64,000 nt of DNA from Gammaproteobacteria bacterium (GTDB taxonomy: Bacteria; Pseudomonadota; Gammaproteobacteria; Eutrophobiales; Eutrophobiaceae), in contig JAURPG010000106.1 in the NCBI GenBank assembly GCA_030835405.1, positions 6,067 through 70,066 of the forward strand. Reading direction: 5' to 3'. A program made the translations under genes and the position numbers. Below, piece after piece: positions 5,948 to 32,056 of the stretch (positions within the stretch are counted from its first letter, which is position 1; each line of letters begins with the position of its first letter). The notes under the pieces are model-generated. The model saw only the letters and a program-made list of their open reading frames with translations, was not told where the DNA came from and ran no database searches.

Positions 5948-6092
5948 GTTGTTATTCCGATGCAGGCTATTACCTCTATAAAAAAGAACCAGTTAGAATT
6001 ATTGCTGTAAACTCAATCATAAACAAATAATCAATTTATGTTGAATTATTCAATTGCTGTGACACCATAATTTTAGAAACTGAATATCAAAT

Positions 6093-7271: not shown

Positions 7272-7325
7272 CACGATATATTATTAGTCCACGCCTCATT
7301 ACAAAAAACAGGGACAGAAATCAGC

Positions 7326-8321: not shown

Positions 8322-8420
8322 TACGATAAGCATGTAACTGTTTTATCAAAAAAAGATGAATGAAACATAAAAGTCACGTTTACGAGATGAGTTCTATAAA
8401 TATGAATATGGAGATTTTCA

Positions 8421-9854: not shown

Positions 9855-9870
9855 ACACGAGTGAGTATTC

Positions 9871-11277: not shown

Positions 11278-12034
11278 TCAGCTTGCTGCACATTACGATA
11301 CGATATTTACAAATACCGATATTGGCAGGATGCTTCGACAACGTACACATGACCTGCTTAATGGAATGTTTACTCCGGGGCAAACAGTTCTTGTTCTAAA
11401 TTGTGGCACCGGTGAAGATGTTATTCACCTGGCCAGGCAGGGCATAAATGTTTTAGCATCGGATAACTCGGAAGAAATGATCAAGTTTGCAAAAATTAAA
11501 GTGAATCAAGCCGGTTTAAATCATATGGTTGAATTCAGGCAGATAAATTTTGATAAACTTGATTACAGCCTTTCCTCTGGAGAAACGTTTGACGGGATAA
11601 TATCTAATTTTGGTGGAATAAATTGCTCCTCAGACATATCGCAGGTAGTAAAAAATATTGCAGATTATCTGCGGCCGGGTGGCAAGCTCTACCTTTGTAT
11701 AATGGGGCAGTTCGTACCATGGGAGTGGTTATACCTGGGGGTAAGAGGGAAGTATAAGAGGATTTATCATAGATTCAGAGGTAGCTGTATATGGAGAGGA
11801 CAGGAAATAAAGTATTATTCCCCGGCTGAAATCGAGACGTATTTGTCGATACATTATCGATCTACTCAATGTAGTGGGCTTGGGTTTCTCATTCCTCCCA
11901 GTTATGCAGGAAAATTGTTCTCAAAATTCCCCCGTGTTTTTTATTTTTTGAACTGGGTTGAGAAACATTTAGAAACTTTTTTCCCAATTCCTTTGCTTAG
12001 TGATCACTTTGTTTTTAAATCAATAAGAAAGTGA
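11240..12034 (+). CDS. Class I SAM-dependent methyltransferase
   Basis: SAM motif I is VLVLNCGTGEDV, and a post-I acidic residue is present. The ORF is open from 11207, but the Met at 11240 avoids most of the overlap with the upstream gene. The stop overlaps the next start (ATGA). Confidence 0.7.
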   Translation: MNESTSSIRQVFNQLAAHYDTIFTNTDIGRMLRQRTHDLLNGMFTPGQTVLVLNCGTGEDVIHLARQGINVLASDNSEEMIKFAKIKVNQAGLNHMVEFRQINFDKLDYSLSSGETFDGIISNFGGINCSSDISQVVKNIADYLRPGGKLYLCIMGQFVPWEWLYLGVRGKYKRIYHRFRGSCIWRGQEIKYYSPAEIETYLSIHYRSTQCSGLGFLIPPSYAGKLFSKFPRVFYFLNWVEKHLETFFPIPLLSDHFVFKSIRK

Positions 12035-12954
12035 AACATTCCCGCGATTGGCAAGGAATATGTCCTGTCTGTAAATCAGAAATAGGAACCCTGACATGGC
12101 CGGGAAAGAATATTGATTGTGGTGATTGTCTGGAATCATTTAAATCAATAGAGGGGATTTATCAGCTTATACAACCAGGGCGTCTCAATGCCTATAAGCA
12201 GTTTCTGGACGATTATACCAGCATAAGAATTGCAGAAGGCCGGGGTGATCATGGCCATGATTACTATTGCCGACTGCCAGAGCCCACTGTGTCGGACCCA
12301 TTATCATGGCAATGGAAAATCAGAAGTAAGAGCTTCAAAACCCTGGTATCTGTACTGGATCTGGAATCTACCAGGCAACGCAGAATCCTTGATCTGGGTG
12401 CCGGAGTGGGGTGGTTGTGTCATCGTGTGGCATCATTGGGGCATTACCCCATAGCAATTGATATCAACATGGATGAAATGGATGGACTCAGGGCAGGAAG
12501 GTTTTATGACAGGAGCTGGCCCTGCATACAGGCTGAATTCGATAACTTGCCCATCCAGAATGAACAGGCAGATTTGGCCATATTCAATGCGAGCTTACAC
12601 TACAGCACAGACTATTACGGTACTCTGAAAGAAGCACTAAGGGTCCTGAGGGGGGATGGGCAGTTAGTGATAATCGATTCACCAATATACAGACGGCCCG
12701 ACAGTGGTATCAATATGAAGTTACAACGACACGAATTTTTTAATAAGGTATACGGTTTTAGATCTGACAGTATTGACAGTATTGAATTCCTGACCTGGGG
12801 AATGCTTGAAGAGTTGGAGAAAAAACTCGAAGTAAAATGGAGGATAATCAGGCCATGGTATGGATTACGATGGGCTATGCGCCCGCTGACATATGCAGTT
12901 AAAGAATCGCGCGAAGCATCAACATTTGCAATTTTAATGGGAACCCGGGCCTGA
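12031..12954 (+). CDS. Methyltransferase with an N-terminal 4-Cys zinc-ribbon (Trm112-like) domain
   Basis: The N-terminus has CPVC...CGDC. Downstream lies SAM motif I, ILDLGAGVGW. The gene is translationally coupled on both sides. Confidence 0.6.
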   Translation: MKHSRDWQGICPVCKSEIGTLTWPGKNIDCGDCLESFKSIEGIYQLIQPGRLNAYKQFLDDYTSIRIAEGRGDHGHDYYCRLPEPTVSDPLSWQWKIRSKSFKTLVSVLDLESTRQRRILDLGAGVGWLCHRVASLGHYPIAIDINMDEMDGLRAGRFYDRSWPCIQAEFDNLPIQNEQADLAIFNASLHYSTDYYGTLKEALRVLRGDGQLVIIDSPIYRRPDSGINMKLQRHEFFNKVYGFRSDSIDSIEFLTWGMLEELEKKLEVKWRIIRPWYGLRWAMRPLTYAVKESREASTFAILMGTRA

Positions 12955-13961
12955 TGAATAAATTGACATCCTTGCCTGCAAACGACGATATGGTTAAACA
13001 ACTACCAATCATGGTTTTAATGCTTAAATCAGATTGCAACTGTCGCTGCACGATGTGTGATATCTGGAAAGGAAATTCCAGCGAGTCACTGGAATATGAT
13101 GGTGTTAAGGATCTGGTGAAGCAACTTCAATCTCTAGATACACATGAGATTGTACTCAGTGGCGGCGAGCCATTGATGCACAGGGAAATCGAGTCGGTTT
13201 GCAGGTTATTGTCGACAATGAATTTCAGAGTCACCCTGATTACTACAGGATTGTTACTCAAACGTCATGCGCAATGGATTAGTAAATATATCGATCAAAT
13301 ATACATCAGTCTTGATGGACCAGAAAAAGTACATAATTCTATCAGGAACATTCCAGGTGCTTATGTAAAAATTAAAAAAGGTGTGGAAGCAGTCCGGCAT
13401 TACAGACCGGACATTAATATTGGAGCACGTTGTACCATACAAAAACAAAATTACAGGTATATCGGTGATACTGTCGATGCAGCCAGGGAGTTGGGTATGA
13501 ACACCATCAGTTTCCTGGCAGCAGATGTCAAGGCTGAAGTTTTTGGCAGGACCAGTGACTGGAAAGATAACGGGATTGCCCTGACCGGTACAGAGCTTTC
13601 TGAGCTTGAAGATATTCTTCAGCAATTTTTCATAAATTATAAAAATGATTTTGATTCAGGATTTATAGTTGAAGATAGAAATAAATTACAGACAAAACTA
13701 CTAGATTATTATCACGCCCTCAGTACGGACAGGAATTTCCCCGGGGTGGATTGTAACGCACCATGGGTTTCAGCAGTCGTAGAAACAAACGGAAAAGTAA
13801 GGCCCTGTTTTTTTCATAAACCCTATGATGAAGCTCTGGATAATAAATCCGTCAATGAGATCATTAATTCTGATACGGCAAAAAAATGGAGAAAAGAACT
13901 GGACGTCAAAACCAACGATATCTGTCGAAGCTGTGTTTGTTCGCTTTCGTATGGCGTATGA
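12954..13961 (+). CDS. Radical SAM enzyme with a C-terminal SPASM/twitch-like Cys cluster
   Basis: The rSAM cluster is CNCRCTMC (C-x3-C-x2-C). The C-terminal region has additional cysteines (C...C...CRSCVC) compatible with auxiliary Fe-S cluster ligation. Confidence 0.7.
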   Translation: MNKLTSLPANDDMVKQLPIMVLMLKSDCNCRCTMCDIWKGNSSESLEYDGVKDLVKQLQSLDTHEIVLSGGEPLMHREIESVCRLLSTMNFRVTLITTGLLLKRHAQWISKYIDQIYISLDGPEKVHNSIRNIPGAYVKIKKGVEAVRHYRPDINIGARCTIQKQNYRYIGDTVDAARELGMNTISFLAADVKAEVFGRTSDWKDNGIALTGTELSELEDILQQFFINYKNDFDSGFIVEDRNKLQTKLLDYYHALSTDRNFPGVDCNAPWVSAVVETNGKVRPCFFHKPYDEALDNKSVNEIINSDTAKKWRKELDVKTNDICRSCVCSLSYGV

Positions 13962-14039
13962 GCACACAAAATATTGTGCGGTTATTCGTCTGTAGAACGT
14001 GTCCGATAATTATAGCCTGCAACGATCAGTATTAAGTAT

Positions 14040-15230
14040 TTGTATTATTATTCATTAATCATATTGAGTCAGTTAGATTTGAGTCCGTCACTGAACATCG
14101 TTTTTATCACCCCGGGAGGTGTGGACAGGAGTGGCCGTGAAAGGGTCATACCACACTTTTTATGGCTGCTTGAAAAGCTCTCGTTAAATCATAATGTAAA
14201 AGTGATAAGTTTATTTCAGTATGATTCTGCCTGTGAATATTCACTTAACGGCATACAGATTTCTGTTCCCGGGAAGATACGGCAAGACTGGAAAACTGAT
14301 AAGGAACCCGGGACAGTATTGAATGATTTGTACGAAGCATGTATCGCATACCTGGATCCTGCTGAACCGGTTGACATTGTCCATGGCTTGTGGGGATTTC
14401 AGGCCGGTTGGATTGCCACCAGAATTGCATCTTCGTTAAAGATTCCTTCTGTAGTGAGTTTGATGGGAGCCGAGTTTGTATCTTTTCCGGACATCAAATA
14501 TGGTGGGCAGTACTGGGAACATCAACGGTTGACATTAAATGATACTTTAAAAAATGCCACTGCATTAACTGTTGCAAGTCACTTTATGCAAGATATGGCT
14601 TCCGCATACAGTATAGAAACTGATTACATACCTTTTGGCGTACATGAGTCCTGCTTTCAGGACAACGGGGCACTGGATATTCCAACCTGGCGACTCCTGA
14701 CTGTTGCGAGTATAAATAGAATAAAGGATTTTTTTACCTTGATTGAGGCCTTCAGGATAGTTGTTGATGAAATCAATGATGTTCAACTGGATATTATTGG
14801 TGAAGATGTCATGGATGAGGAAATACAGGCGTTATCTGACAGATTATGTCTGACTAATCATGTTAACTTTCATGGATTCCTGCCAAATGACGAGATACGG
14901 AAATATTTCCAGAGGGCACATCTGTATGTGGTTACCTCGATAAACGAAACCGGACCAATAGCCATGCTGGAAGCTGCGGCTTGTAAAGTAGCAACTGTGG
15001 GAACCAAAGTTGGATATGTATCTGACTGGGACGGTAAACGCTCACTGGCTGTGGAGTCCCAGAGCCCTGGTAAGCTTGCAGTGCAGATAATCTATCTGAT
15101 AAAGCACGAACCAGTCCGAAAAAATCTCGGTATGGCCGCATATAAATGGGTTCGGGAGTATGATGTAAACTGGACTTCTAACAGACTAACTAAACTTTAT
15201 CTTGACCTGATAAATAATCATATGGATTAA
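14040..15230 (+). CDS. Glycosyltransferase family 4 (group 1); the true start is probably downstream of the annotated ATG
   Basis: The C-terminal region has ETGPIAMLEAAACKVATVGT, the E-x7-E GT4 signature. The first 15 or so codons (MYYYSLIILSQLDL...) look non-coding. A TTG near IVFITPGG is a plausible alternative start. Confidence 0.65.
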   Translation: MYYYSLIILSQLDLSPSLNIVFITPGGVDRSGRERVIPHFLWLLEKLSLNHNVKVISLFQYDSACEYSLNGIQISVPGKIRQDWKTDKEPGTVLNDLYEACIAYLDPAEPVDIVHGLWGFQAGWIATRIASSLKIPSVVSLMGAEFVSFPDIKYGGQYWEHQRLTLNDTLKNATALTVASHFMQDMASAYSIETDYIPFGVHESCFQDNGALDIPTWRLLTVASINRIKDFFTLIEAFRIVVDEINDVQLDIIGEDVMDEEIQALSDRLCLTNHVNFHGFLPNDEIRKYFQRAHLYVVTSINETGPIAMLEAAACKVATVGTKVGYVSDWDGKRSLAVESQSPGKLAVQIIYLIKHEPVRKNLGMAAYKWVREYDVNWTSNRLTKLYLDLINNHMD

Positions 15231-15313
15231 ACTGGGTGTCACATAGTATTCAAGCAGTGGTAACAGTTCATTACCTTATTTTTCACAAATATATTTAAAA
15301 CGTTTAATCAGGC

Positions 15314-15338
15314 AGGGAGAATGGGACCCTCTCCCTTT
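15314..15338 (+). terminator. Candidate intrinsic terminator hairpin downstream of the GT4 gene
   Basis: A 7-bp stem agggaga/tctccct with a 9-nt loop is followed by TTTAT. Confidence 0.3.
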
Positions 15339-15526
15339 ATGTGAACCCGGAATTGCTTTGCATTTTAGATAGCACTTACTCGTAACAGGGACTAAAAGCA
15401 AGATGGAAAAACTGATTTTTAGAGGTCTTTAGCGGGATAATCCCTGTCTGTTTCAATGGTAATTAACTATATCTATGATATACAATGATTTACACTCAAT
15501 TGGCATTATGAATCGGGATAGCTAAT

Positions 15527-16462
15527 TTGAAAACACATAATATTCTTGTCCTTTTGACTGCTTGTGCAATATTGTCCTTGTTCTTGCCAGATGTCGCCTA
15601 TGCCCAGGCAACGCAGAATCAGGCAGGCACATATATCGGCACCCAGGTTTGTTCGTCCTGCCACAATGACCTTTCAGATCACTGGTCCCATACAGTGCAT
15701 TCAAAGATTTTCATGAATAACCCGGGAAATGAAATTGAGCGCCGGGGCTGTGAATCATGCCATGGCCCCGGCTCAGAGCATATAATAGATCCAACGGCGG
15801 TGGATAAAATAATCAGGTTTTCCCAAAATGCACCAAGCCCAACCGGGGAACAGAATCGATCATGTCTCCAGTGTCATGCCGGCGGAAATCGAATCCACTG
15901 GTCAAGCTCAATACACGAAAGTAATGATTTGGCCTGCGCTGATTGTCATAACCCGATGGCAAACTTCTCCTCTGTTAATCTACTGGTGCAAAACAATATT
16001 AATGAGACCTGTTTCATGTGTCACAAGGAACAACGTAGCCAGTTTAACAGGCGATCACATATGCCGTTGAATGAAGGTAAAATGTCATGCACTGACTGCC
16101 ATAACCCCCATGGCAGTAATACGGATAGCCTGCTGAAAACTGATAATGTGAATCAGACCTGTTTTCAATGCCATGCGGAAAAAAGAGGTCCTTTCCTCTT
16201 TGAACATGCCCCGGTAACCGATAATTGCCTGAACTGCCATGAACCCCATGGTTCGAACCATGAAAAATTACTGCTTACAGCCCGCCCAATGTTATGTCAG
16301 CAGTGCCACACATCCATCGGGCATATGAATGACCTGTTTACATCAGGAAATCTTGCAACGGGTAGTCGCCCGGACATACGCCTAATTGGGAGAAGTTGCC
16401 AGAATTGTCATACGCAGATCCATGGATCCAACCATCCGGCAGGATCAAAATTCCAACGGTAG
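15527..16462 (+). CDS. Periplasmic decaheme c-type cytochrome of the MtrA/MtoA/PioA family
   Basis: Ten CxxCH haem-binding motifs are spread over 311 aa (CSSCH, CESCH, CLQCH, CADCH, CFMCH, CTDCH, CFQCH, CLNCH, CQQCH, CQNCH). A signal peptide is present. The apparent start codon is TTG. Confidence 0.8.
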   Translation: MKTHNILVLLTACAILSLFLPDVAYAQATQNQAGTYIGTQVCSSCHNDLSDHWSHTVHSKIFMNNPGNEIERRGCESCHGPGSEHIIDPTAVDKIIRFSQNAPSPTGEQNRSCLQCHAGGNRIHWSSSIHESNDLACADCHNPMANFSSVNLLVQNNINETCFMCHKEQRSQFNRRSHMPLNEGKMSCTDCHNPHGSNTDSLLKTDNVNQTCFQCHAEKRGPFLFEHAPVTDNCLNCHEPHGSNHEKLLLTARPMLCQQCHTSIGHMNDLFTSGNLATGSRPDIRLIGRSCQNCHTQIHGSNHPAGSKFQR

Positions 16463-16483
16463 TATCCATATCAAATTCATCAG

Positions 16484-18973
16484 ATGAAAATTAACGTCCA
16501 TATATGTAAATTTCCCATTCATGCATTGATATGTATTATTTTAACACCCGGGTTACTTCAATCTGCTGAGTTACCGGAAAGATCAAATCATCTCAATTCC
16601 GGGGTATCTTCGAAAGGGAGCCTGGTGGCAAAGAGTGACTTTAACAAGTTCCAGGAAAGATTAAGAACTCCCGGTGGTTTTCTGATACCCGATGCCCCTG
16701 AACAGCAGTCCTTAAAATCTGTCTCTGACAGTGAGTGGTTATATTCACTATCTATTAATGCCGGGTACATTAATGCTTCCGGTAATGAAAATTCTGCCCA
16801 GTTTAAAGAATACGGGGACTGGGATAATGGACTCGTTTTGAAACGATTTTCAGGTGTACTTGAAAATCCCGGGACTGCCCACTACTTCAAGTTAGGCGGT
16901 GGGAGTTTGGGCAGAAACGATCAGTTTTTGAATTTTTCTTCCGGTAAATATGGAAAATATAATTTTTCCCTGGCGTTTGATGCTACGCCTCATGATTTTG
17001 CAAATAATGCCCAGGTGCTTTGGGATGGCGCAGGAAGCAATATCCTTACATTGCCAGACGGCCTCGTCCCCGGAAACAGTACGGCAGCAGATGTCACTAT
17101 GGCGCTTCAGGTGATTGATGGTTCTGATATAAAACTTGAAAGGGACAAGCTCAGTGTTGCTTTTGACGTCGATTATCTACCAACTCTGAATTTCCATGCT
17201 GAGGGTTCTGTCGAATGGCGGGATGGTGGCAGGCCTATTGGTGGAGGATTTTCCTATCCTGGTTCCGGCCAGGTCACTGAAATAATTGAGGCGATAGATT
17301 ACACGACCTATGAAATCAATTTAGGTCTCGCATACAGCGGTACAGGCAGGCAGCTGAATTTTTCGTATACGGGATCCCTGTTCGTAAATAATTACAGCGC
17401 CCTGACGTGGGAAAATCCAGGCGTTTCACCGTTTACGGCATATGCACCGCGAAGGGGCCGTTATGCGCTTGCACCTGACAACGAGTTTCATAATTTTAGA
17501 GGTGATTTTGTAACCAAATTACCATTCTGGAATAGTAGGTTAACTGTAGTGTCATCGTATTCTATTTCAAGCCAGAATGATCTATTGATTCCTCCAACAA
17601 TCAGCTCTGGAACGATTACAAGCGGGCCCAGTACCATTAATCTCAATCTTTGGAATACGGTTGAGGCACTTTCCACAGACAGGGCCAATGCAGAAATAAG
17701 AAATTTGAATTTACAGTCAAGAATTATTTTAAACCCTGTCAGGAAAATAAGGTTAAGGGGCGAAGTAAAATATACTGATAGGGACAACAGGACAGATTAT
17801 ACAGCATTAAATCCACTTACCGGGGAGTATGGATATATTGTAATGGATGGTGGCCTGGATGCATTAGCACCATCCCTGACAGGTATTTATAATCCTTTAC
17901 GTCCGGGAAGCCGGGTCAGGTTTAAAAATATTCCTTTTGACAAAGACACATTCCTGATTACTGCAGGGGTGGATTACCTGGTGACCAATAAACTGAAGAT
18001 GGGTTTGAGATATTATCGGGACCATCAGGATTATCGTCACAGGGAAGTGGATAAACTAATCGAGGACAGAATTAAGCTTAACCTTGTTTATCGGGACCGT
18101 AAAATAGGCACGCTCAGGACGTCATATGAATACCGTGACAGGGATAGTGATGGTTATAATTTTAACCCGTACGAGGAATTCTATACTTCGTCGTTACCTG
18201 CTTATATACCTCGCCTTGCAGATGGCGATGATCCTCATACGTTGAGTGATTTGCGGAAGTATGACGTCGCAAGCAGAAAGAAACATACATTAAAAGGCAA
18301 ATACAATTCTATCATTGTTGAAAATCTTGATCTTACACTAACCGGTCAATATTCAGATGAAAATTTTGATGCACAGTATGGATTAAGGGAAAAAGATTCA
18401 TTATCTGCAAACCTGGATTTGAACGTATATATGGGTTTAAATAAAAGTATATATGCTTATTACTCATTTCAATCCAGCAAAAGTTATTATGCAAATATAA
18501 ATAATGCAGGCGGGGCATTTTCTGATCCATTTGCCGGTGGACCCCGGTATCCTCTGGATCGTGCGTGGACTGGAAGTGCGAGGGAAAAAAACAATAGCAT
18601 TGGGGCAGGGATTAATTTTGGTGTTGACGATGTATTAATTAATCTGAGTTATACGTACATCAGGTCCAGGTCCAGGTTTCAATATAATTTTAATTCAACT
18701 GCAGCTTTTAATAATACATTAACCGAACAGGAAGTTGGCACCGGGTTTCCCGACCAGATATTCAGCAATCATCACCTGCAATCAAACATAACGTGGTCGG
18801 TTCGAGAAAATACAAAACTGAATTTTCTCTACAGGTATGAGACTGAAAAAGTAAGTGATTTTCATTACCAGGGGATAACAAATTCTATTGTTGATGACTC
18901 AATTCTGTTGCTTGCCTTGCCGGAAAATTTTAATAGTCATGTGGTAGGGTTATTTATTGAGAACAATTTTTGA
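16484..18973 (+). CDS. Outer-membrane beta-barrel porin of the MtrB/MtoB/PioB family, sheath for the decaheme cytochrome
   Basis: It is 829 aa and lies 21 nt downstream of the decaheme gene. It has a signal peptide, the alternating hydrophobic/aromatic composition of beta-barrels rich in Y/N/G/S/T, and a C-terminal ...IENNF ending in an aromatic residue as outer-membrane proteins typically do. Confidence 0.65.
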   Translation: MKINVHICKFPIHALICIILTPGLLQSAELPERSNHLNSGVSSKGSLVAKSDFNKFQERLRTPGGFLIPDAPEQQSLKSVSDSEWLYSLSINAGYINASGNENSAQFKEYGDWDNGLVLKRFSGVLENPGTAHYFKLGGGSLGRNDQFLNFSSGKYGKYNFSLAFDATPHDFANNAQVLWDGAGSNILTLPDGLVPGNSTAADVTMALQVIDGSDIKLERDKLSVAFDVDYLPTLNFHAEGSVEWRDGGRPIGGGFSYPGSGQVTEIIEAIDYTTYEINLGLAYSGTGRQLNFSYTGSLFVNNYSALTWENPGVSPFTAYAPRRGRYALAPDNEFHNFRGDFVTKLPFWNSRLTVVSSYSISSQNDLLIPPTISSGTITSGPSTINLNLWNTVEALSTDRANAEIRNLNLQSRIILNPVRKIRLRGEVKYTDRDNRTDYTALNPLTGEYGYIVMDGGLDALAPSLTGIYNPLRPGSRVRFKNIPFDKDTFLITAGVDYLVTNKLKMGLRYYRDHQDYRHREVDKLIEDRIKLNLVYRDRKIGTLRTSYEYRDRDSDGYNFNPYEEFYTSSLPAYIPRLADGDDPHTLSDLRKYDVASRKKHTLKGKYNSIIVENLDLTLTGQYSDENFDAQYGLREKDSLSANLDLNVYMGLNKSIYAYYSFQSSKSYYANINNAGGAFSDPFAGGPRYPLDRAWTGSAREKNNSIGAGINFGVDDVLINLSYTYIRSRSRFQYNFNSTAAFNNTLTEQEVGTGFPDQIFSNHHLQSNITWSVRENTKLNFLYRYETEKVSDFHYQGITNSIVDDSILLLALPENFNSHVVGLFIENNF

Positions 18974-18997
18974 ACTAATTTGAAATTATTATAATAA

Positions 18998-19927
18998 ATG
19001 GGCAAGAAAAATTTTTTATCCGTAATCGTTATATGTTACAACATGATCCGGGAGGCCCCTCGAACGGTCTATTCATTATCGAAAAAATATCAGAAAAGAA
19101 TAAGACTGGAAGATTATGAAATTATCGTCATAGATAATAACTCTAGCGAACTGCTTAACAAGGAAGAAATAGAAGGAATTGGTCCCAATATTACCTATTA
19201 TTACCATGAATCCGGATCTGCCTCGCCCGTGAGTTCAATTAATTTTGGTATAGGGAAGTCCAAAGGTGAATATGTCGGCATCTTGATCGACGGGGCCCGT
19301 ATCGTAAGTCCAATGGTCCTTAACTGGGCGTTATATTCGCTGTAGACTCTTTATAATCCGTTTGTATCAACATTGAGCTGGTATTTGGGTGAAGATCAAT
19401 AGTTTATATCTGTTCCAAAAGGCTATTCCAGGGAATATGAAGATCAACTACTGGATGAAATTGACTGGAGATCCAATGGTTACAAGTTATTCTCCATATC
19501 AACATTTGCAGGCTCATCGAAGCCGGGTTTTTTTTAGTCAATTTCAGAAAGCAATGGTGTATTTTTAAGTAAAAATTTATATGAACGTGTTGGTAGATAT
19601 GATCCCGAATTTGATCTGCCAGGCGGCGGTCTATGCAACCTGGATTTTTATAAACGGGCCGTCGAATTCCCGGAAGTGACTCATGTAATATTATTGGGAG
19701 AAGGGACATTTCACCAGCACCACTATGGTATCACCATGAGCAGTCGTTCAATTGATGTCATAAACTTGCTCGACAAGTACCATGATCAATATAAGGAAAT
19801 AAGGAAAAGTGAATTTACCAGCCCAAAAACTAATCCGGTTTTTGTTGGAAATATTCCAGATAGTGTATTGCCATTTATTCAGGAATCTATTGTCAATGCT
19901 ACCGATAACAATCCTACTTGTGAATAA
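18998..19927 (+). pseudogene. Family 2 glycosyltransferase: one continuous 310-codon frame interrupted by three in-frame TAG codons (19343-19345, 19400-19402, 19535-19537)
   Basis: The N-terminus (SVIVICYNMIREAP...EIIVIDNNSS) and C-terminus (LYERVGRYDPEFDLPGGGLCNLDFYKRA) are GT2-like. ORFs 18998-19345 and 19676-19927 are in the same frame. The stretches between them translate cleanly with no frameshift, and the only interruptions are three TAG codons. Confidence 0.6.
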
Positions 19928-19957
19928 AGTTTTAGTTAGTCGAGATATTTTATTCTG

Positions 19958-21181
19958 ATGAATGATAATACATATGCAAGCAATAATGGTGAACTTGTTC
20001 TACTTTCTACCCGCCAACATATGGGCCGGGAAACGGCGGAAAAAATCAGTCTGTTATTTAAAACAGAACTGGACTGGAAAAAAATAGTTTCAATTGCAAA
20101 AAGAAACAAAGTCGTTCACCTGGTAGATAAAACCATGACCGAACACTTTGACGGCATGGTTGATTCAGAAGATTTGCAGGCACTTACTGATGAATCGCAG
20201 GTGCATTTTAAAAGTAATGAGGATAGTCTTGATTTGTTATTGGATATCAAGACACTGTTGTTGTCTGAAAGCATCCCCGTCATTTTCTTTAAGGGTATTA
20301 TCTTTGCCCATGTGTATAACAAGGACTATAAATTTCGAACACAGGGCGATATTGACATACTGGTCAGACCGGAAGATTTCCTGAAAGCAAGGGATATACT
20401 AGTAAGAAATGGTTTTGAGTCTGTTTATTTCGGTCATGCTGAAGTGTCAACTGTCCAGGCACAACTGGGCAGGAGCGACAGGCGAGCCAGCGTTGACTTG
20501 CACTATGGGGTCACCCCCCAGTACCAGCAGACCAATATGGATGAGGCATTAAGCGGAAGTAAATTTGACAAAAAATACCGTAATAAAATCGTCAAAAACC
20601 GTACCTACTGGTTTTGTCAATTTCAAACTGAAGAAATCTGGAAACGCAAAATCCAGATTGAGATAGAAGGCGAAACCATTACCACGCTGTCCCACGAAGA
20701 TACGCTCCTGGTGGCTGTCATTCATGCGGCAAAAGAAAACTGGAGATCGATGAGCAGAATAAGTGATATCACTGCGATTATAGAAACAAGCGGAAACCTG
20801 AACTGGGAAATTATCTATGAAACGGTAAGTGGATTGGGCTTTTTAAAAAAGTTTTATCTCGGTATCAGGTTAGCAAACGAGATGTATGATGTTGAATTGC
20901 CTGTAAATGTAATCAGGATGATGAATAAACATGGTTCAAAGTATCTCGCCAGACAGATTATCTTTAGACTGACCCTGGATAACTTTACTGTTGATATGGA
21001 AGAATTCAGGCGAATCGTTGCAATTATGACGATGGATTCAATCACAGATTTTTTCAGGTACCTGCAATATGTATTCAATACTCCGGCGGGTCCAACCGGC
21101 AAGGAGATAACCCAGGGAAATTTCCTGGGCTTTTTAAAGGTATTATCCGGTCAATATATACGGAAATTTCTATCCCGCTAA
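19958..21181 (+). CDS. Nucleotidyltransferase-family protein (uncharacterised NTP_transf_5-like type), as found beside HprK-like kinases and sulfotransferases in RiPP clusters
   Basis: It has the QGDIDILVRPEDF acidic motif characteristic of this nucleotidyltransferase fold. Size is 407 aa. Confidence 0.5.
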   Translation: MNDNTYASNNGELVLLSTRQHMGRETAEKISLLFKTELDWKKIVSIAKRNKVVHLVDKTMTEHFDGMVDSEDLQALTDESQVHFKSNEDSLDLLLDIKTLLLSESIPVIFFKGIIFAHVYNKDYKFRTQGDIDILVRPEDFLKARDILVRNGFESVYFGHAEVSTVQAQLGRSDRRASVDLHYGVTPQYQQTNMDEALSGSKFDKKYRNKIVKNRTYWFCQFQTEEIWKRKIQIEIEGETITTLSHEDTLLVAVIHAAKENWRSMSRISDITAIIETSGNLNWEIIYETVSGLGFLKKFYLGIRLANEMYDVELPVNVIRMMNKHGSKYLARQIIFRLTLDNFTVDMEEFRRIVAIMTMDSITDFFRYLQYVFNTPAGPTGKEITQGNFLGFLKVLSGQYIRKFLSR

Positions 21182-21333
21182 CCCCATCTATCTGGCAATA
21201 ATACCTTCAATACGACAAAAAGTTATGTAACTAACTGATTTCAATATAATTTGCCGGATTATGCATAAGGTTTTATACTCGGGTATATATGGTGCAGCTG
21301 TCACTATCAGGAAATCCAGGAGACACTTATCCA

Positions 21334-23760
21334 ATGCAAATGGTCATTCGGTTATTTATTTTATTTTTTCTCACATTTAGCGTTGTATGTAATTCACAAG
21401 ACAGAAATAGTGATCAGGCTGGAGATTTCGTAAGGTATGAAACCCTCGTCAGCCAGTATTGCGTAACCTGTCATAACGATACCTTACGCACAGCAGGGTT
21501 TTCACTTCAGCAGGCAGATCTCACCAATATGGGTGAATATGCCGAGACCTGGGAAAAAGTCCTGCGTAAGGTCAAGGTCAAGACCATGCCTCCATCAGGT
21601 ATGCCGCGGCCAGATGATGCTACTTATAAGGCCTTTGCTGATTTTCTCACCACCAGCCTTGATAGGCATGCTTTAGATAATCCAAGGCCAGGTGTTGCGG
21701 CAATTCGTCGCCTGAACCGTACCGAGTACTTCAACGCAATTCGTGACCTGCTGGCGGTTGAAATCAATGACAGTACTATCCTGCCCGCCGATGACACCAT
21801 GTACGGGTTTGACAATGTGGGAGCGGTTCTAACTTTATCACCCATGTTGACGGAGCAGTATATAACCGCAGCACGGAAAATCCGTTACCAGGCCCTGGGC
21901 CATCCGGATATGCCACCGGAGTTTTTTACCTACAATGCCCCAAGGTATTTAATGCAGGAAGACTGGGTCAGTGATGACCTGCCGTTTGGTTCACGGGGTG
22001 GGATGTCAATACAACATCATTTTCCCATGGATGGGGAATATGTCCTGCAGATCCGGTTACAAAAAAATTCCAGGGATTATATTCGTGGGTTGGTGCATAT
22101 TCCTCATGAAATAGATATCCGCCTGGATGACAAGCAAATCGCAAGGCTTTCAGTCGGTGGCGAAAAGTTTGGAAAATCATCGGGGATGTTTTCCTCCAGT
22201 GCCCAGGGGCACCCTGATCAGGAACAATATGAAAGATACAGTGATGAAGCATTGGAAGTTCGTTTCAATGCAAAGGCCGGCACAAGAAAAGTCTCCGTTG
22301 CATTTCTGAAGAAACTGGCCTTGCCTGAAGAGCCTTCATACAGCCAGATGTCTATCATTGATTATGCCCAGCTCAAGGCCGGAGTCCCCGGTATAGGCAC
22401 CATCAGGATAGGTGGTCCTTATAATTCCACGGTCTCAACGGAATCTGAGACGCATAAGAAGATATATGTCTGTACCCCCAGAAATGACAGGGACACAAAC
22501 TGCGCAGAAAAGATTATCTCCAACCTCGGCAGACTGGCTTATCGCCGGACGTTAACCCGTCTGGAGCTGGATGGGCTCATGGAATTTTTTCAGCAGGGCC
22601 AAAGGGCCGGCGGGTTTGACGAGGGCATTGGTCTTGCCATGGAAAGGATCCTGGCCGGGCCAAAATTCCTGTTTATCATCGAGCAGGCACCCGAAGAGGT
22701 CAATGAAGGTGATATCTTTGCTATCTCTGACCTGGAACTGGCGACCCGGTTGTCCTTGTTCCTGTGGAGCACCATGCCGGATGATGAATTGCTGAGCGTG
22801 GCGGAGTCCGGGCAACTGCGTAAATCACAAGTCCTCAAACAGCAAATTCTGCGCATGCTTGGCGACCCCCGTTCACGGACCTTGGTAAATAACTTCGCAG
22901 CGCAATGGCTGACGCTTGGCAGGCTGAATGCCTCTGCACCTAATGGCGAGATATTCCCTTATTTTGACGATAATCTGAGGCAGGCCTACCGTACGGAAAC
23001 GGAGATGTTTTTTGATTACGTATTTCGAAACGACAGGCCACTACTGGAATTGCTTGATGCAGATTACACCTTTGTAAACGAAAGGTTGGCAAAGCATTAT
23101 GGTATTCCTGATGTGTTTGGCAATCATTTTAGAATGGTGGAGTTAACAGATGGTACCCGTGGGGGCTTGCTGGGACAGGGCAGTATCCTGACGGTGACGT
23201 CCTATGGGAATCGAACCGCACCTACCATACGCGGTAAATGGATCCTGGAAAACATACTGGGGGCACCACCGCCACCGCCACCAGCCAATGTCCCGGGGCT
23301 GCTGGATAAGAATGACGAAGGGAAGGTGCTGAATATGCGCCAGCAAATGGAACAGCACCGGGCAAATCCCGTGTGTGCCAGTTGCCACAAGGTCATGGAT
23401 CCCCTGGGTTTTGCGCTGGAAAATTACGATGCCATTGGTAAATGGCGTACCATAGATGCCGCTTCCAAAGAACCGATTGATGCCTCCGGGGCGTTGCCCG
23501 ATGGCACGCCATTTATTGGCTTGGCAGGCCTTAAGGAAGTATTAATGGAGAAGCGCCAGTATGATTTTATCATGACCGCCATTGAAAGAATGCTAACTTA
23601 CTCGCTTGGAAGGGGAATAGATCACCGGGATGCCCCCGCCATGCGCGAAATTATGAGACAGGCAGAACCGGACAATTATCGATTATCTTCTATAATTATG
23701 GCAATCATTGAGAGTATGCCATTTCAGATGAGGAGGGCACCTAGCCATGATGATATTTAA
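21334..23760 (+). CDS. Large secreted DUF1592/DUF1595/DUF1587/DUF1588-type protein with an N-terminal c-type haem (PSCyt-like) domain
   Basis: There is a signal peptide (MQMVIRLFILFFLTFSVVC), then CVTCHND (CxxCH) and a second CASCH. The roughly 800 aa length and the immediately following DUF1552 partner fit this Planctomycete-type pair. Confidence 0.6.
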   Translation: MQMVIRLFILFFLTFSVVCNSQDRNSDQAGDFVRYETLVSQYCVTCHNDTLRTAGFSLQQADLTNMGEYAETWEKVLRKVKVKTMPPSGMPRPDDATYKAFADFLTTSLDRHALDNPRPGVAAIRRLNRTEYFNAIRDLLAVEINDSTILPADDTMYGFDNVGAVLTLSPMLTEQYITAARKIRYQALGHPDMPPEFFTYNAPRYLMQEDWVSDDLPFGSRGGMSIQHHFPMDGEYVLQIRLQKNSRDYIRGLVHIPHEIDIRLDDKQIARLSVGGEKFGKSSGMFSSSAQGHPDQEQYERYSDEALEVRFNAKAGTRKVSVAFLKKLALPEEPSYSQMSIIDYAQLKAGVPGIGTIRIGGPYNSTVSTESETHKKIYVCTPRNDRDTNCAEKIISNLGRLAYRRTLTRLELDGLMEFFQQGQRAGGFDEGIGLAMERILAGPKFLFIIEQAPEEVNEGDIFAISDLELATRLSLFLWSTMPDDELLSVAESGQLRKSQVLKQQILRMLGDPRSRTLVNNFAAQWLTLGRLNASAPNGEIFPYFDDNLRQAYRTETEMFFDYVFRNDRPLLELLDADYTFVNERLAKHYGIPDVFGNHFRMVELTDGTRGGLLGQGSILTVTSYGNRTAPTIRGKWILENILGAPPPPPPANVPGLLDKNDEGKVLNMRQQMEQHRANPVCASCHKVMDPLGFALENYDAIGKWRTIDAASKEPIDASGALPDGTPFIGLAGLKEVLMEKRQYDFIMTAIERMLTYSLGRGIDHRDAPAMREIMRQAEPDNYRLSSIIMAIIESMPFQMRRAPSHDDI

Positions 23761-25090
23761 AAAATCCATTCCACGCAGAACGTTCCTACGCGGGGCCGGC
23801 GCAAGCATTGCCTTGCCAGTACTTGACGCCATGTTTCCGGCACTGGCTTCAACAAAGGCAGCAATGGAGGTCCCCAGACGGTTTTCCATTGTTTATATCC
23901 CCAATGGGGTCAACATGGCCCATTGGACGCCAAAGCAAACCGGTAAATCATTCGAGATCACACGTGCTATCAAACCATTGGCCAGTTACCAGGACAAGAT
24001 GCTGATGTTGACTGGTCTCAGTAATACACCAGGTGATGCATTACCAGGTGAAGGTGAAACCGCACCCCATGAACGGGCGGGCGGGGTTTTTCTTACCGGA
24101 GTCCATCCCTTAAATGAAGGTCGCACAGGCGTATCTATTGACCAGATCATTGCCCGGGAACTGGGCAAAAAGACCCAGTTGGCCTCCCTGGAAATGGGGC
24201 TGCATACCAAGGATGTGATTGGAAATTGTGAAAAAGGCTGGAGCTGCGCCTATTTGAGTACGCTTTCCTGGCGAACGCCAACCACCCCGATGCCTATGGA
24301 ATACCGTCCCCGTGCTGTTTTCGAACGGCTTTTTGGTGGCAGTAGTAGTACTGACAGGGGCGCACGCATGGAGCGCATAAACAAGGAAAAAAGTATCCTT
24401 GATGATATTACCCGTGAGGCCCGGCAAATGATGAATTCATATGGGCCAAACGACAAGGCCAGATTAACTGAATACCTGGACGGGATGCGTGACGTTGAAC
24501 GACGGATTCAATTGGCAGAACAACAATCTTCCCGTGAATTGCCAACGATGGAACGTCCATCAGGGGTACCTAATGATTTTGTCGATCACCTGAAATTGAT
24601 GTTTGACCTTCAGGTCCTGGCATTCCAGACAGACATGACCCGCATGATTACCTTCATGACGGCACCGGAACAGAATAACCGCACTTATGGGCAGATCGGC
24701 GTGCCCGATGTACACCATTCTGTTTCCCATCACCGGGATGATCCCTCTAACCTGGAAAAATTAGCCAGGATCGATGAGTACCATTCCCAACTGTTCAGCT
24801 ATTACCTGGACAAGTTGCATAATACCCAAGATGTTGACGGATCTTTACTGGACAATATGATCGTTATGTATGGCGCGGGAATGAGTGATGGTAATCAACA
24901 CCTGCTACATAATCTGCCTATCATGCTGGTAGGGGGTGGTTCCGGACAACTTAAAGGCGGCCGGCACATCAAGTACAAGTTAGATACACCCATGTCGAAT
25001 TTATATCTTTCCATTCTGGACAAGCTGGATATCCCGCTTGAGAAGTTTGGAGACTCCACGGGTAAATTAAATCTTGCGGCAACGGCATAA
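23747..25090 (+). CDS. DUF1552 family protein with a Tat signal
   Basis: The N-terminus is IPRRTFLRGAGASIALPVLDAMFP, the canonical DUF1552 start with a twin-arginine motif. It overlaps the upstream gene by 14 nt. Confidence 0.7.
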   Translation: MMIFKKSIPRRTFLRGAGASIALPVLDAMFPALASTKAAMEVPRRFSIVYIPNGVNMAHWTPKQTGKSFEITRAIKPLASYQDKMLMLTGLSNTPGDALPGEGETAPHERAGGVFLTGVHPLNEGRTGVSIDQIIARELGKKTQLASLEMGLHTKDVIGNCEKGWSCAYLSTLSWRTPTTPMPMEYRPRAVFERLFGGSSSTDRGARMERINKEKSILDDITREARQMMNSYGPNDKARLTEYLDGMRDVERRIQLAEQQSSRELPTMERPSGVPNDFVDHLKLMFDLQVLAFQTDMTRMITFMTAPEQNNRTYGQIGVPDVHHSVSHHRDDPSNLEKLARIDEYHSQLFSYYLDKLHNTQDVDGSLLDNMIVMYGAGMSDGNQHLLHNLPIMLVGGGSGQLKGGRHIKYKLDTPMSNLYLSILDKLDIPLEKFGDSTGKLNLAATA

Positions 25091-25117
25091 CTGGGCTGCA
25101 TAGTTAAGGAGTTTGCA

Positions 25118-26677
25118 TTGAAACAGGAATTTATTAATGGGTTATTTAGACTCGTTCTTATTTCACTTCTGGTATTTTCAAGCCATGTATCAGCAGGCAC
25201 GTCGCTGGTCGAGTCTGCCAAACTCAATGACCTGGCAAGTGTAAAGGCCTTACTGACAAACGGTGTGGATGCAAACTCGAGCAATGCTGATGGTTCGACG
25301 GCGCTGCATTGGGCGGTATTACGTAATAACGACGAGATGGTCGATAGCCTGATTTCGGCCGGGGCCAATCCGAACCCAGCCAACGAATACGGCGCTACAC
25401 CGCTCTGGCTGGCCTGCAACAATAAAAGTGATGAAATGATCCAGCGGTTACTGGATGCCGGTGCCGATCCCAATGCATCCATGTGGTCTGGCGAATCACC
25501 GTTAATGAAATGTTCCCTGACAGGTGCAACCAATGCGGTCGCGGCACTACTGAAGGCAGGTGCCTATGTTGATGCAGTCGAATCCGTCCAGGGGCAGTCC
25601 GCATTGATGTGGGCGGCAGCTAAAGGACATTCGGATGTTGTCAGATTACTGATTGATAATGGTGCAGATATCTCTGTAAAAACCATTGCGACAGCCGACA
25701 AGCTGCCGCATTCCTGTAATACGTGTGAATGGAAAAAATCCAGTGGTGGATTTACGCCATTACTATTTGCTGCAAGGTCTGGGGATATTGCAACCATCCG
25801 TTTATTCATGGAGGCCGGTGCCGATCCCAATGAATCAACGCTTGAACATGGTAATTCTCTGGTTATTGCGGCGGCAGGCGGGCATTACGATTTAGCCCTG
25901 TTCCTGTTACAAATGGGGGCCGACCCTGATTCAAGTGACGATACCGGGTTGACAGCACTGCATCATGCCGTGGGCGGTGGACTGGCATTATTAAATGGTG
26001 TCATATATGACGGTGTGTACCGGATCCAACCAGAAAATGATCTGGAGCTTGCCAGGGCATTGCTTGATGCTGGTGCCAACGTCAATGCACAAATCAGGCA
26101 GGATCATTTACTGGGGCCGGACGGGACGCCTTTCAGCATGACAGGGGCAACACCCTTACTTCTGGCCGCGACATCGGCTGATGTTGATATGATTGGTTTA
26201 CTGAAAAAATATGGCGCAGACCCGAGTTTGAGTGCCAAAGGCAATGTGACACCGCTGATGGCCTCTGCCCAGGCCGCCTGTACCGGTACCTGCGCCTACC
26301 AGGAGGGTGGTAATGTCGCCAATACGGAGGCGGTGCAACAAGCATACCGTGCGACAAAGGCTATTTATGAAATGGGTGGTATAGATATTGATGCCACCAA
26401 TAATACAGGTAGAACGGCGTTGCATATCGCGGCTTTTACCGGTTCGGACATCGTCGTCCAGTATCTGGCTGAGAAGGGTGCCGATGTAAACCGCAAAGAT
26501 AATCGTGGTGAAACGCCCTGGACCATGGCATCAGGAATGACAACCAATATTGGTAGCCGGGGGTTATATGGCCACCATGACAGTACTGCAGAGTTACTAT
26601 TAAAGCTTGGCGCCAAGGTCATTACCATGGAGCAACTGGAAGAAGACACCCCGCCATATGCTGGTGCCGGCCTTTAA
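25118..26677 (+). CDS. Secreted ankyrin-repeat protein
   Basis: A signal peptide is followed by multiple ANK repeats (GSTALHWAVLRNNDEMVDSLISAGANPN, GATPLWLACNN..., GQSALMWAAAKGHSDVVRLLIDNGADI, and others). Confidence 0.8.
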   Translation: MKQEFINGLFRLVLISLLVFSSHVSAGTSLVESAKLNDLASVKALLTNGVDANSSNADGSTALHWAVLRNNDEMVDSLISAGANPNPANEYGATPLWLACNNKSDEMIQRLLDAGADPNASMWSGESPLMKCSLTGATNAVAALLKAGAYVDAVESVQGQSALMWAAAKGHSDVVRLLIDNGADISVKTIATADKLPHSCNTCEWKKSSGGFTPLLFAARSGDIATIRLFMEAGADPNESTLEHGNSLVIAAAGGHYDLALFLLQMGADPDSSDDTGLTALHHAVGGGLALLNGVIYDGVYRIQPENDLELARALLDAGANVNAQIRQDHLLGPDGTPFSMTGATPLLLAATSADVDMIGLLKKYGADPSLSAKGNVTPLMASAQAACTGTCAYQEGGNVANTEAVQQAYRATKAIYEMGGIDIDATNNTGRTALHIAAFTGSDIVVQYLAEKGADVNRKDNRGETPWTMASGMTTNIGSRGLYGHHDSTAELLLKLGAKVITMEQLEEDTPPYAGAGL

Positions 26678-26942
26678 AATTAATTTACTTTTTTTTCTTC
26701 TACTGTCTACTGCGGTCATTCCGGTTGCCAGCCAGATAACTGATAACGCCCAGCAGGCCAAAGTCAAATCCAGACAGCTTGCTCCCGCCCAGTATGAGGT
26801 CACCTGTTTTGAATCTGCTGAATATTGTGCTGAGGAATTCAAACGCTTATGTCCAGGTGGACACAGGGTTGGTGGCTATTTCAGGAATCAGTTTGACCAT
26901 GGCCAGATTACAGCGGTGATTACCTGTCAGGAAAACAATTGA
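26658..26942 (+). CDS. Small secreted four-cysteine protein
   Basis: The frame is open from 26607. A Sec-type signal peptide runs from the Met at 26658 (MLVPAFKINLLFFLLLSTAVIPVASQ). The mature region of about 69 aa has four Cys (C-x6-C-x7-C-x28-C). Confidence 0.45.
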   Translation: MLVPAFKINLLFFLLLSTAVIPVASQITDNAQQAKVKSRQLAPAQYEVTCFESAEYCAEEFKRLCPGGHRVGGYFRNQFDHGQITAVITCQENN

Positions 26943-27031
26943 TTACATTAAATGCAGTTTTTTATCTGGTAATAATCACTTCACAAACCCCGGTGAAAGT
27001 TGTTAACTGTACTCAATAATTAATTGTCCTT

Positions 27032-28072
27032 TTGATCATGGAACATCAAATCAATAAAAATCCAGGTATACAGGTGCTCAATGCCATTGCCGCATTTATT
27101 ATTGTCGTGGCGGGGATGAAGGCTGCCTCTTCAATTGTCGTGCCATTTTTGCTTGCCATCTTCATTTCCATTCTTGCAGCATCCCCCATGTTATGGTTGC
27201 AGAACAGGGGTTGGCCACTTTGGGCAGCGTTAACCACGATCATCACGGCAGTCATAGCAATAATGACTTTGTTGGTCTTGTTGCTGGGTACTACGCTGGA
27301 TGATTTTACCCGCGAACTTCCCAACTACCAGTCCCGGTTACGGGAGATAGTTGCGGGTGTTGTCGATTGGGCAGAGGGTCGCGGCCTGGACGTTTCAGCA
27401 GAACGGGTCAGGGAAGTTTTTGACCCGGCACGGGCAATTGGTATCGTTAATAATATCCTCGGCGGGGTGACCAACCTGTTGGGGAATGCGTTTCTTATTC
27501 TGTTTACGATTATTTTTATGTTGGTAGAGGCCGCCAGTTTCCCGCGTAAAATTGTCAGGATTACCGGGGGTAAAATCTCAAGCACCTACAATGAAATTTT
27601 ATTGAAAATACGTAAATACATTGCTGTTAAGACCCTGATCAGCGCGGCTACTGGCCTATGTATCGGCATCCTCACCTACCTGATGGGTGTAGATTTTCCA
27701 ATACTGTGGGGAATTATTGGATTTCTTCTCAACTATGTTCCTACTATTGGTTCAATCATTGCATCGGTGCCGGCCTGCCTGATCGCATTGGTACAACTGG
27801 GTATCTGGCCAACACTGTTTACTGCCATGGGATATTTTGCAATCAATACCGTATTTGGAAACCTGATTGAGCCAAAGGTCATGGGTAAGGCCATGGGACT
27901 TTCAACCCTGGTGGTGTTTTTATCGTTGGTATTCTGGGGTTGGGTGCTGGGTCCCATAGGTATGTTACTGTCAGTCCCATTAACAATGGTGGCGAAGATT
28001 GCCCTGGAACAGAACCCACAGACCATGCCCATTGCTATTCTGCTCGATGCTGATAAACCAGTGGATAATTAA
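27032..28072 (+). CDS. AI-2E family transporter (PerM/UPF0118-like permease)
   Basis: It is a polytopic membrane protein of 346 aa with the conserved LVVFLSLVFWGWVLGPIGMLLSVPLT block typical of AI-2E proteins. Confidence 0.7.
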   Translation: MIMEHQINKNPGIQVLNAIAAFIIVVAGMKAASSIVVPFLLAIFISILAASPMLWLQNRGWPLWAALTTIITAVIAIMTLLVLLLGTTLDDFTRELPNYQSRLREIVAGVVDWAEGRGLDVSAERVREVFDPARAIGIVNNILGGVTNLLGNAFLILFTIIFMLVEAASFPRKIVRITGGKISSTYNEILLKIRKYIAVKTLISAATGLCIGILTYLMGVDFPILWGIIGFLLNYVPTIGSIIASVPACLIALVQLGIWPTLFTAMGYFAINTVFGNLIEPKVMGKAMGLSTLVVFLSLVFWGWVLGPIGMLLSVPLTMVAKIALEQNPQTMPIAILLDADKPVDN

Positions 28073-31969: not shown

Positions 31970-32056
31970 TGGTGCCGGGAAAGGGAATCGAACCCCCACT
32001 CAGTTGCCTGAACCGGATTTTGAATCCGGCGCGTCTACCAGTTCCGCCACCCCGGC
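31970..32056 (-). tRNA. leuX: tRNA-Leu(CAA), class II tRNA with a long variable arm
   Basis: The reverse complement reads GCCGGGGTGGCGGAACTGGTAGACGCGCCGGATTCAAAATCCGGTTCAGGCAACTGAGTGGGGGTTCGATTCCCTTTCCCGGCACCA. The anticodon stem-loop is CCGGA-TTCAAAA-TCCGG with anticodon CAA. GTTCGATTC is the T-loop, and there is a 3' CCA. Confidence 0.9.

Follow-up and report, generated by a model that had tools for sequence, protein, structure and literature searches.

Three in-frame amber codons in a GT2 glycosyltransferase gene of an uncultured gammaproteobacterium: a probable young nonsense pseudogene

Introduction

The window analysed here, a stretch of 64,000 nucleotides from a host described as an uncultured marine-type gammaproteobacterium, contains a gene for a family 2 glycosyltransferase (GT2) whose reading frame is interrupted three times, on each occasion by the amber codon TAG. 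How such a gene should be read is the question raised by this locus: the interruptions may be the marks of recent decay, they may be errors of sequencing or assembly, or they may be translated. A first-pass annotation, made from the letters of the sequence, had offered all three readings and regarded the combination of same-type stops and no indels as unusual. Here, the interrupted frame is compared with intact orthologues and with further assemblies of the same species, and is considered together with the genetic code of the host, the erosion of the gene and the frequency with which such a pattern would arise by chance.

Results

A glycosyltransferase frame with three internal TAG codons

The frame between positions 18998 and 19927 (+ strand) comprises 309 codons and closes with TAA at 19925-19927. 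Translation of this frame shows exactly three internal stops, all of them TAG, located at 19343-19345 (codon 116), 19400-19402 (codon 135) and 19535-19537 (codon 180), all on the + strand. Two open reading frames, 18998-19345 and 19676-19927, had been annotated as lying in a single frame with no frameshift between them, and the TAG codons at 19343, 19400 and 19535 as the only interruptions; the coordinates match on both counts. The conceptual protein is collinear from end to end with GT2 proteins of ~300 aa, and no frameshift was found within 18998-19927. A hidden indel between the two flanking segments had been named as the result that would overturn this description. When aligned against the 305-aa intact orthologue, the segments were collinear over 99% of the sequence with no internal gaps and no hidden indel, the four gap columns representing extra C-terminal residues.

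Residues 8-96 matched the PF00535 profile (39.2 bits; cutoff 23.3), which assigns the gene to the GT2 glycosyltransferases of the GT-A fold, and a homologue search gave 250 matches, the best of which (P0001) was 70% identical across 99% of the query. The N-terminal ~100 residues form the nucleotide-sugar binding half that is shared with characterised members of GT-A family 2 (PF00535/PF10111; PglI, GalT1 and chondroitin synthase), and they match the PDB chains 6p61, 5hea, 2z86 and 9jma. The C-terminal ~200 residues differ from those of the characterised GT-A members and contain a G209-G210-G211 triplet and a G234-E235...F238-H239-Q240.H242.G244 block. Neither an NCBIfam equivalog nor a solved structure was matched by this C-terminal part, which belongs to an uncharacterised GT-A subfamily. 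An alignment of 35 sequences (A1) had 36 invariant columns, including D98-G99-A100-R101, G209-G211 and E235/H239/Q240/H242; the protein of the window is itself one of the aligned sequences, and its retention of all 36 columns is consequently true by definition. An active GT2 would have an uninterrupted frame, and the three in-frame TAG codons depart from this.

The gene lies in a conserved cluster and the sister species has glutamine at all three sites

The GT2 frame is bordered by two intact genes on the + strand. An MtrB/PioB-type outer-membrane porin (16484-18973; PF11854, E = 9e-102) lies 24 nt upstream and was used as a synteny anchor, and an NTP_transf_5 nucleotidyltransferase (19958-21181; PF14907, E = 3e-41) lies 30 nt downstream. 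The sister species has both genes in this order, and the conserved cluster consists of GT1, an MtrA-like decahaem cytochrome, the MtrB/PioB porin, GT2 and NTP_transf_5. The locus of the best homologue is syntenic (radical SAM, GT1, MtrA-like cytochrome, MtrB/PioB and GT2). Contigs of the sister species (L001, L012-L016 and L018-L020) carry GT1-MtrA-MtrB-GT2-NTP_transf_5-PSD-DUF1552 with an intact GT2 of 304 or 305 aa, and in the longer of the sister-species contigs, which were reached via the downstream DUF1552 gene, the order continues past DUF1552 into Ank and onward.

Alignment with the intact orthologue had been proposed as the means of establishing which residues sit at the interrupted positions, and it identified glutamine at all three in the sister species, encoded by CAG at the first site and by CAA at the second and the third (the third in the context TTTTTTCAA). 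The ancestral codon at position 116 is CAG. Codon 135 is Gln in 33/33 outgroups, all of them distant homologues, while codons 116 and 180 are variable across the GT2 family. As the sister or outgroup residue is Gln, each TAG is a single C>T step from CAG. At the third site the C>T change also lengthened a run of seven T residues to eight, so that 19528-19535 (+ strand) now reads TTTTTTTT.

Amino acid identity to the sister species was 70% for GT2, 56% for NTP_transf_5, 59% for GT1, 65% for MtrB and 77% for MtrA. The glycan and Mtr island is thus 56-77% identical to that of the sister species, compared with 85-92% for the genes just beyond it, and this stronger divergence suggests fast-evolving surface functions. 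The contigs that carry the homologues P0133 and P0135 represent one sister species and are ~100% identical to each other; the TAG codons can therefore not be dated on a deeper tree. A porin-anchored search of genome and metagenome contigs gave distant relatives only (39% and 33% identity) and no intermediates, and an exact look-up with the NTP_transf_5 neighbour returned no record.

The same stops are present in other assemblies of the species

Where genome coverage is low, internal stops often stem from errors of assembly, and +1 insertions in homopolymers are the usual long-read error (PMC11017572). An exact look-up with the 115 N-terminal residues up to the first TAG found records of this fragment in NCBI, JGI, ENA and Logan. 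Eight other contigs of the species were retrieved from these sources (GCA_040265195.1, ERZ27296361, ERZ27296340, SRR26991299, SRR25455802 and the JGI data sets 3300021964, 3300021958 and 3300044723); they derive from other samples and at least five sequencing efforts, with different assemblers, pipelines and repositories (NCBI, ENA, Logan and JGI). Over 18900-20000 these contigs were 99.6-100% identical to the window and TAG was present at every covered site: in 8/8 at the first, 6/6 at the second and 6/6 at the third. A second MAG of the species was 99.83-100% identical to the window over ~18 kb. No intact version of more than 70% identity was detected among 5.8 billion protein clusters, and no haplotype with one or two of the TAG codons was found among the protein clusters and the eight contigs.

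The stops are real and do not represent an artefact, and the broken state of GT2 appears to be fixed in a nearly clonal population. The persistence of the TAG codons in such a population is therefore uninformative on selection either way. A falsely broken GT2 does occur in this data set: in the sister-species contig L021 the gene is 'broken' by two +1 insertions in A-homopolymers, an error of a different type from the TAG substitutions of the window.

TAG serves as a normal stop codon elsewhere in the window

The 53 open reading frames of at least 150 aa in the window end with TAA in 27 cases, TGA in 21 and TAG in five. The five include ftsI (58149-59876) and murF (61393-62751), both identified through Pfam and the dcw-cluster annotation of the same-species contig L022, and mtrA (15527-16462), identified through the L022 annotation and Pfam; two further ORFs also end in TAG. 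Beyond the mtrA terminator there are 836 stop-free in-frame codons with no back-up stop. The mtrB gene is in frame with mtrA with no stop between the two, and efficient amber suppression would therefore fuse MtrA to MtrB. No in-frame TAG occurs in the other 50 long ORFs, whose 18,898 codons include 409 CAG and 262 CAA. It had been stated that TAG ends other genes in the window, for example the ORF ending at 1241, and that wholesale reassignment is unlikely; both statements are borne out by these counts.

A search for tRNA(CUA), which had been recommended, detected none in the 64-kb window, where the only tRNA is Leu(CAA), or in 12 other loci, which contained no tRNA. An Rfam scan together with a promoter and terminator scan around GT2 gave nothing above chance, and no viral relative of GT2 was found in IMG/VR. 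A phage with TAG read as Gln was considered as the donor of the TAG-containing stretch and rejected, since the middle segment and its flanks resemble the sister species equally and IMG/VR contains no viral relative. These data show a standard code in use, and the TAG feature is specific to one gene and looks mutational.

Limited erosion with possible signs of relaxed constraint

Five replacements in the window lineage fell in columns conserved at 80% or more (A80S, H129Y, G200R, G243Y and T247M), compared with one in the sister species, which was conservative (Y31F); this excess of five to one is not significant alone. The changes include Tyr129 (TAT, 19382-19384, + strand), a coding-strand C>T missense change where His is present in 97% of outgroups and the sister species has CAT; Arg200 (AGA, 19595-19597, + strand), where Gly is found in 33/33 outgroups; Tyr243 (TAT, 19724-19726, + strand), within the conserved FHQxHGG motif, where Gly is found in 82% of outgroups; and Met247 (ATG, 19736-19738, + strand), a polymorphic C>T change where Thr is found in 85% of outgroups. 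H129Y, G200R, G243Y and T247M may by themselves have left the enzyme inactive. In columns conserved at 90% or more, deviations numbered 6/64 in the window and 3/65 in the sister species. Scored against an HMM of 119 homologues with TAG read as Q, the window protein reached 415.9 bits, the allele of contig L005 419.8 and the sister protein 431.

Contig L005 keeps the ancestral ACG (Thr247) and carries all three TAG codons. T247M therefore arose after the stops, and Met247 is now the majority allele. The T8 homopolymer at 19528-19535 (+ strand) has one T fewer in the same-species contig L011, giving a -1 frameshift on a TAG background. This was the sole indel against roughly 30 kb of same-species alignment, the contigs L004, L005, L006, L008, L010, L022, L024 and L025 being free of gaps over this length. 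Taken together, these changes suggest relaxed constraint, with decay continuing after the stops.

The overall extent of erosion is small. With P0002 taken as the outgroup, a relative-rate test counted 18 window-specific and 23 sister-specific replacements, showing no overall acceleration. Directional nucleotide differences were 30:49 in GT2 and 369:517 in the neighbouring genes (P = 0.55), and there is accordingly no C>T or AT shift. This low erosion, seen in identity, rate, composition and HMM score, indicates that the inactivation is recent. Synonymous and nonsynonymous population SNPs stood at ~12:10 in the flanking genes and 2:1 in GT2, numbers too few to give a pN/pS comparison any power. 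SNP patterns common to several contigs hint at some recombination.

Neutral decay would seldom yield a triple-amber pattern

Under general substitution spectra nonsense changes make up 3.5-5.3% of substitutions in GT2, and neutral-decay models give ~57-86 substitutions before three nonsense changes are expected. In these models the probability that all three are TAG is 0.03-0.10, that all three are CAG>TAG 0.0004-0.04, and that no indel has occurred by 57-86 substitutions 0.0002-0.06. The probability of at least three nonsense changes given 5-10 missense changes is ~0.01-0.15, depending on the spectrum. When C>T changes only are modelled, stops arise from 10/96 nonsynonymous C sites (10.4%; six CAG, three CAA and one CGA), and the probability of at least three nonsense changes is 0.04-0.15 for 5-10 missense changes, with a probability of 0.17 that all three fall at CAG.

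The observed changes have such a bias. Among the polarised replacements of the window lineage 6/10 are coding-strand C>T (P52L, Q116*, H129Y, Q135*, Q180* and T247M), and 3/6 of the ancestral CAG codons of GT2 are now TAG. GC skew of the + strand, which holds nearly all genes, is positive throughout the window, and the coding strand is thus the G-rich strand and probably the leading strand. A G-rich strand of positive skew is prone to cytosine deamination. At the third site, the T7 to T8 context may allow polymerase slippage to yield a substitution of this kind.

Two more specific mutational sources were considered. A local burst of C>T hypermutation or deaminase activity is rejected, directional differences from the sister species being alike in GT2 and its neighbours. 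A CAG-specific hot spot of the 5-methylcytosine type is unsupported: in the aligned genes nearby no context is less C/T-variable than CAG, which is over-represented as a trinucleotide in the window, but selection is a confounding factor here.

It had been argued that indels and stops of all three kinds normally occur together in random decay. In 151 bacterial pseudogenes, 696 indels are reported (PMC6054270). The argument is fair and makes the present pattern uncommon, but it loses most of its force given the C>T bias and the ratio of six CAG to three CAA codons. The triple-amber pattern is uncommon, of the order of 1e-2 to 1e-3, yet it is not extraordinary, and an occasional case should turn up in a genome scan, which passes over a large number of pseudogenes.

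Discussion

The interrupted GT2 gene is very likely a young nonsense pseudogene of an uncharacterised GT-A/GT2 glycosyltransferase. It has a syntenic intact orthologue, its stops are real and TAG ends other genes of the genome. Three separate coding-strand C>T transitions on the branch to this species would have converted CAG (Gln) to TAG at codons 116, 135 and 180, and strand-biased cytosine deamination is the probable mutational cause. Translation by the standard code would end at codon 116 and leave a fragment of 115 residues, in which the nucleotide-binding half would be kept and the C-terminal two thirds lost, including the GGG and FHQxHGG motifs. Without these C-terminal motifs the enzyme would be lost, and as judged from the sequence no full-length protein would be made. 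That all three stops are TAG is accounted for by the dominance of C>T among recent changes and by CAG being the main Gln codon. The first-pass suggestion of recent decay by C>T at CAG agrees with these data, all three TAG codons falling at Gln positions of the syntenic orthologue and other changes of the lineage also being coding-strand C>T. Counting against a pseudogene, the gene is cleaner than simple neutral decay would leave it, with no acceleration, no AT shift and no fixed indel.

This cleanness is also what a selected loss of the enzyme would explain, for example if a change in the glycan allowed escape from phage or grazers. Several nonsense alleles would then have risen in a soft sweep and been merged by recombination or, in a variant of the same idea, extra stops would have been favoured because a single UAG is leaky. 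The share of nonsense changes among the lesions is above the prediction of neutral decay and the gene is otherwise well preserved; the island is more diverged from the sister species than the genes beyond it, and the SNP patterns of the contigs suggest that some recombination has taken place. Were several alleles merged in this way, haplotypes with one or two TAG codons might be expected, and the searches recovered none. A second or third stop adds almost nothing to the loss of function, and the numbers fit chance under a C>T-biased spectrum. We consider selected loss, with its variant, unlikely.

Loss of function would not have occurred at all if a tRNA-Gln(CUA), host-encoded or borne by a phage using code 15, inserted Gln at the TAG codons, with GT2 functional and expressed conditionally; full-length GT2 might, for example, be made during infection for remodelling of the surface glycan. 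A read-through peptide across codon 116, 135 or 180 would be, for example, ...ALYSLQTLYNPF.... Such decoding is consistent with the position of all three TAG codons exactly where the orthologue has Gln, a residue that every outgroup shares at the middle site, with the absence of frameshifts and the retention of the 36 invariant columns (by definition, the window protein having been included in the alignment), with the lack of rate acceleration and compositional drift, and with the improbability of the pattern under naive neutral decay. Phages that read TAG as Gln and carry suppressor tRNAs are, moreover, documented (bioRxiv 10.1101/2021.08.26.457843; PMC9523058). Against this, the sister orthologue has ordinary CAG and CAA codons, in-frame TAG is confined to GT2 among ~19,000 codons, and all carriers of the TAG codons are at least 99.6% identical, which is not the pattern of a conserved read-through. 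The gene has also continued to change on the TAG background: the conserved Thr247 has been lost in what is now the majority allele, a frameshift variant exists, and there are radical changes at H129, G200 and G243. No tRNA(CUA) was detected in the window or the 12 other loci, no phage copy of GT2 was found in IMG/VR, and efficient read-through would join MtrA and MtrB in a fusion. Programmed read-through by a suppressor tRNA or by pyrrolysine insertion, as allowed for by the first-pass annotation, is thus unsupported, in-frame TAG being restricted to GT2 and the orthologue using ordinary Gln codons, and decoding as Gln is in our judgement very improbable. More improbable still is the specific proposal that the TAG codons act as a translational lock, by which GT2 would be made only with a Gln-inserting suppressor tRNA, for example from a phage, and would serve as a sensor or effector of glycan remodelling. 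Were it true, conditional suppression would be important, as a suppressor tRNA would then control a gene of the host; to our knowledge there is no precedent for a host gene gated by amber suppression.

Pyrrolysine at TAG, or reassignment of TAG throughout the genome, is effectively excluded and has almost no probability, its sole support being that the interrupting codon is always TAG, while the interrupted gene is a glycosyltransferase with TAG at Gln positions, unlike the methylamine methyltransferases and their Pyl sites, TAG ends ftsI, murF, mtrA and two other ORFs, in-frame TAG is absent from the other genes of the window, and the long ORFs of the window, of which all but about two dozen were scanned, are largely assigned to other gene families. 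An artefact of sequencing or assembly that conceals an intact gene is likewise effectively refuted and of negligible probability: internal stops are frequent errors in low-coverage assemblies (PMC11017572) and L021 is an example of a false break, but the error in L021 is of another type and the identical three TAG codons are found in nine assemblies (the window and the eight further contigs) from different samples, pipelines and repositories.

Read as a young nonsense pseudogene, the locus documents that a conserved glycan-modification and MtrAB cluster has recently lost one of its glycosyltransferases, the sister species retaining the gene. It also offers a lesson for annotation: in-frame stops are real when they are repeated across metagenome assemblies made independently, unlike homopolymer frameshifts of the L021 type, and a run of identical stops need not signal recoding once codon usage and strand-biased C>T change are taken into account.

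Among known systems, the crAss-like, Lak and other code-15 phages resemble this locus in having in-frame TAG where homologues have Gln. In these phages TAG is read as Gln with suppressor tRNAs and is enriched in late genes, and this concentration in a subset of genes is a further likeness to the single-gene TAG seen here (bioRxiv 10.1101/2021.08.26.457843; PMC9523058). Unlike the genes of these phages, the GT2 of the window is chromosomal, has a conserved bacterial gene neighbourhood around it and is the only gene affected, and TAG is the working terminator of essential genes nearby. With regard to mutation, the classical amber spectrum of E. coli lacI shows CAG>TAG hot spots caused by cytosine deamination at 5-methylcytosine. 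The GT2 events share with these the C>T change at the first base of CAG and all lie on the same strand, but the three sites (ctgCAGac, caaCAGtt and tttCAGtc) have no common methylation-type motif. The closest likeness is to bacterial nonsense pseudogenes, with which the locus shares an intact syntenic orthologue, stops that remove conserved domains, a standard code, possible signs of relaxed constraint and segregating lesions; these pseudogenes usually carry indels (PMC6054270), whereas GT2 has three stops of the same type at Gln codons, no fixed indel and little erosion. Inactivation by premature stop codons is a well-known phenomenon, of which the GT2 locus represents an ordinary though unusually tidy example.

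Gene content and divergence of the GT2 neighbourhood

The family 2 glycosyltransferase gene (GT2) was located within a large modification-type cluster (window 3822-21181). In order, this cluster encodes a GT1 glycosyltransferase, a sulfotransferase, an HprK-related kinase, two B12-binding radical SAM enzymes, two methyltransferases, a radical SAM/SPASM enzyme and a further GT1, followed by an MtrA/MtrB electron-conduit pair, GT2 and NTP_transf_5 (NTP5). It is odd to find an MtrAB module of metal-respiration type surrounded by tailoring genes of a glycan or RiPP-like kind; the same combination was found in the sister species.

Divergence from the sister species was uneven when window 14040-28072 was compared with its contig L013. 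Amino acid identity was 56-70% for GT1, MtrB, GT2 and NTP5, whereas the adjoining PSD (DUF1592-type) and DUF1552 genes exhibited 85-92%. This difference suggests either much faster evolution of the glycan/Mtr island or its exchange.

The MtrA-like decahaem cytochrome and MtrB/PioB porin genes (window 15527-18973) share one reading frame; mtrA terminates with TAG (16460-16462) and mtrB starts at 16484, after a linker of seven codons containing no stop. In the sister species (L013 1774-5217) mtrA also ends with TAG and mtrB follows in the same frame, with a stop-free linker of nine codons. Amber read-through at the mtrA TAG would yield an MtrA-MtrB fusion protein; the layout common to both species may be an inherited coincidence.

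Contig anomalies and the window start

GT2 in sister-species contig L021 (2204-3120; ENA ERZ10646555 contig_15902) appears broken into ORFs of 55, 44 and 223 amino acids. The split is an assembly error rather than a second pseudogene, since it was caused by two +1 insertions in A-homopolymers that set L021 apart from otherwise identical contigs. Positions 1-19 of the Logan contig L007, aligned with window 17669-17687, contained 15 mismatches in 19 bases while the remainder was nearly identical, which suggests junk sequence or chimeric joining at this contig end.

The GC content was 51.5% at window 1-2000, compared with 38-43% over the next 20 kb. The partial ORF at 96-1241 matched a 498-amino-acid protein from the second MAG of the species (L024 7424-8920), which had no Pfam matches.

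A putative peptide modification gene pair

A gene pair was located at window 30151-31958 (orthologues at 17268-19075 of sister-species contig L012). Just downstream of it, a tRNA-Leu(CAA) gene occupies 31970-32056 on the minus strand. The orthologue of the first gene is annotated as MbnB_TglH_ChrH (PF05114, DUF692 family), and the second gene encodes a 305-amino-acid partner. Together the two genes appear to form the signature of a peptide modification system, methanobactin-like or TglH-like in type.
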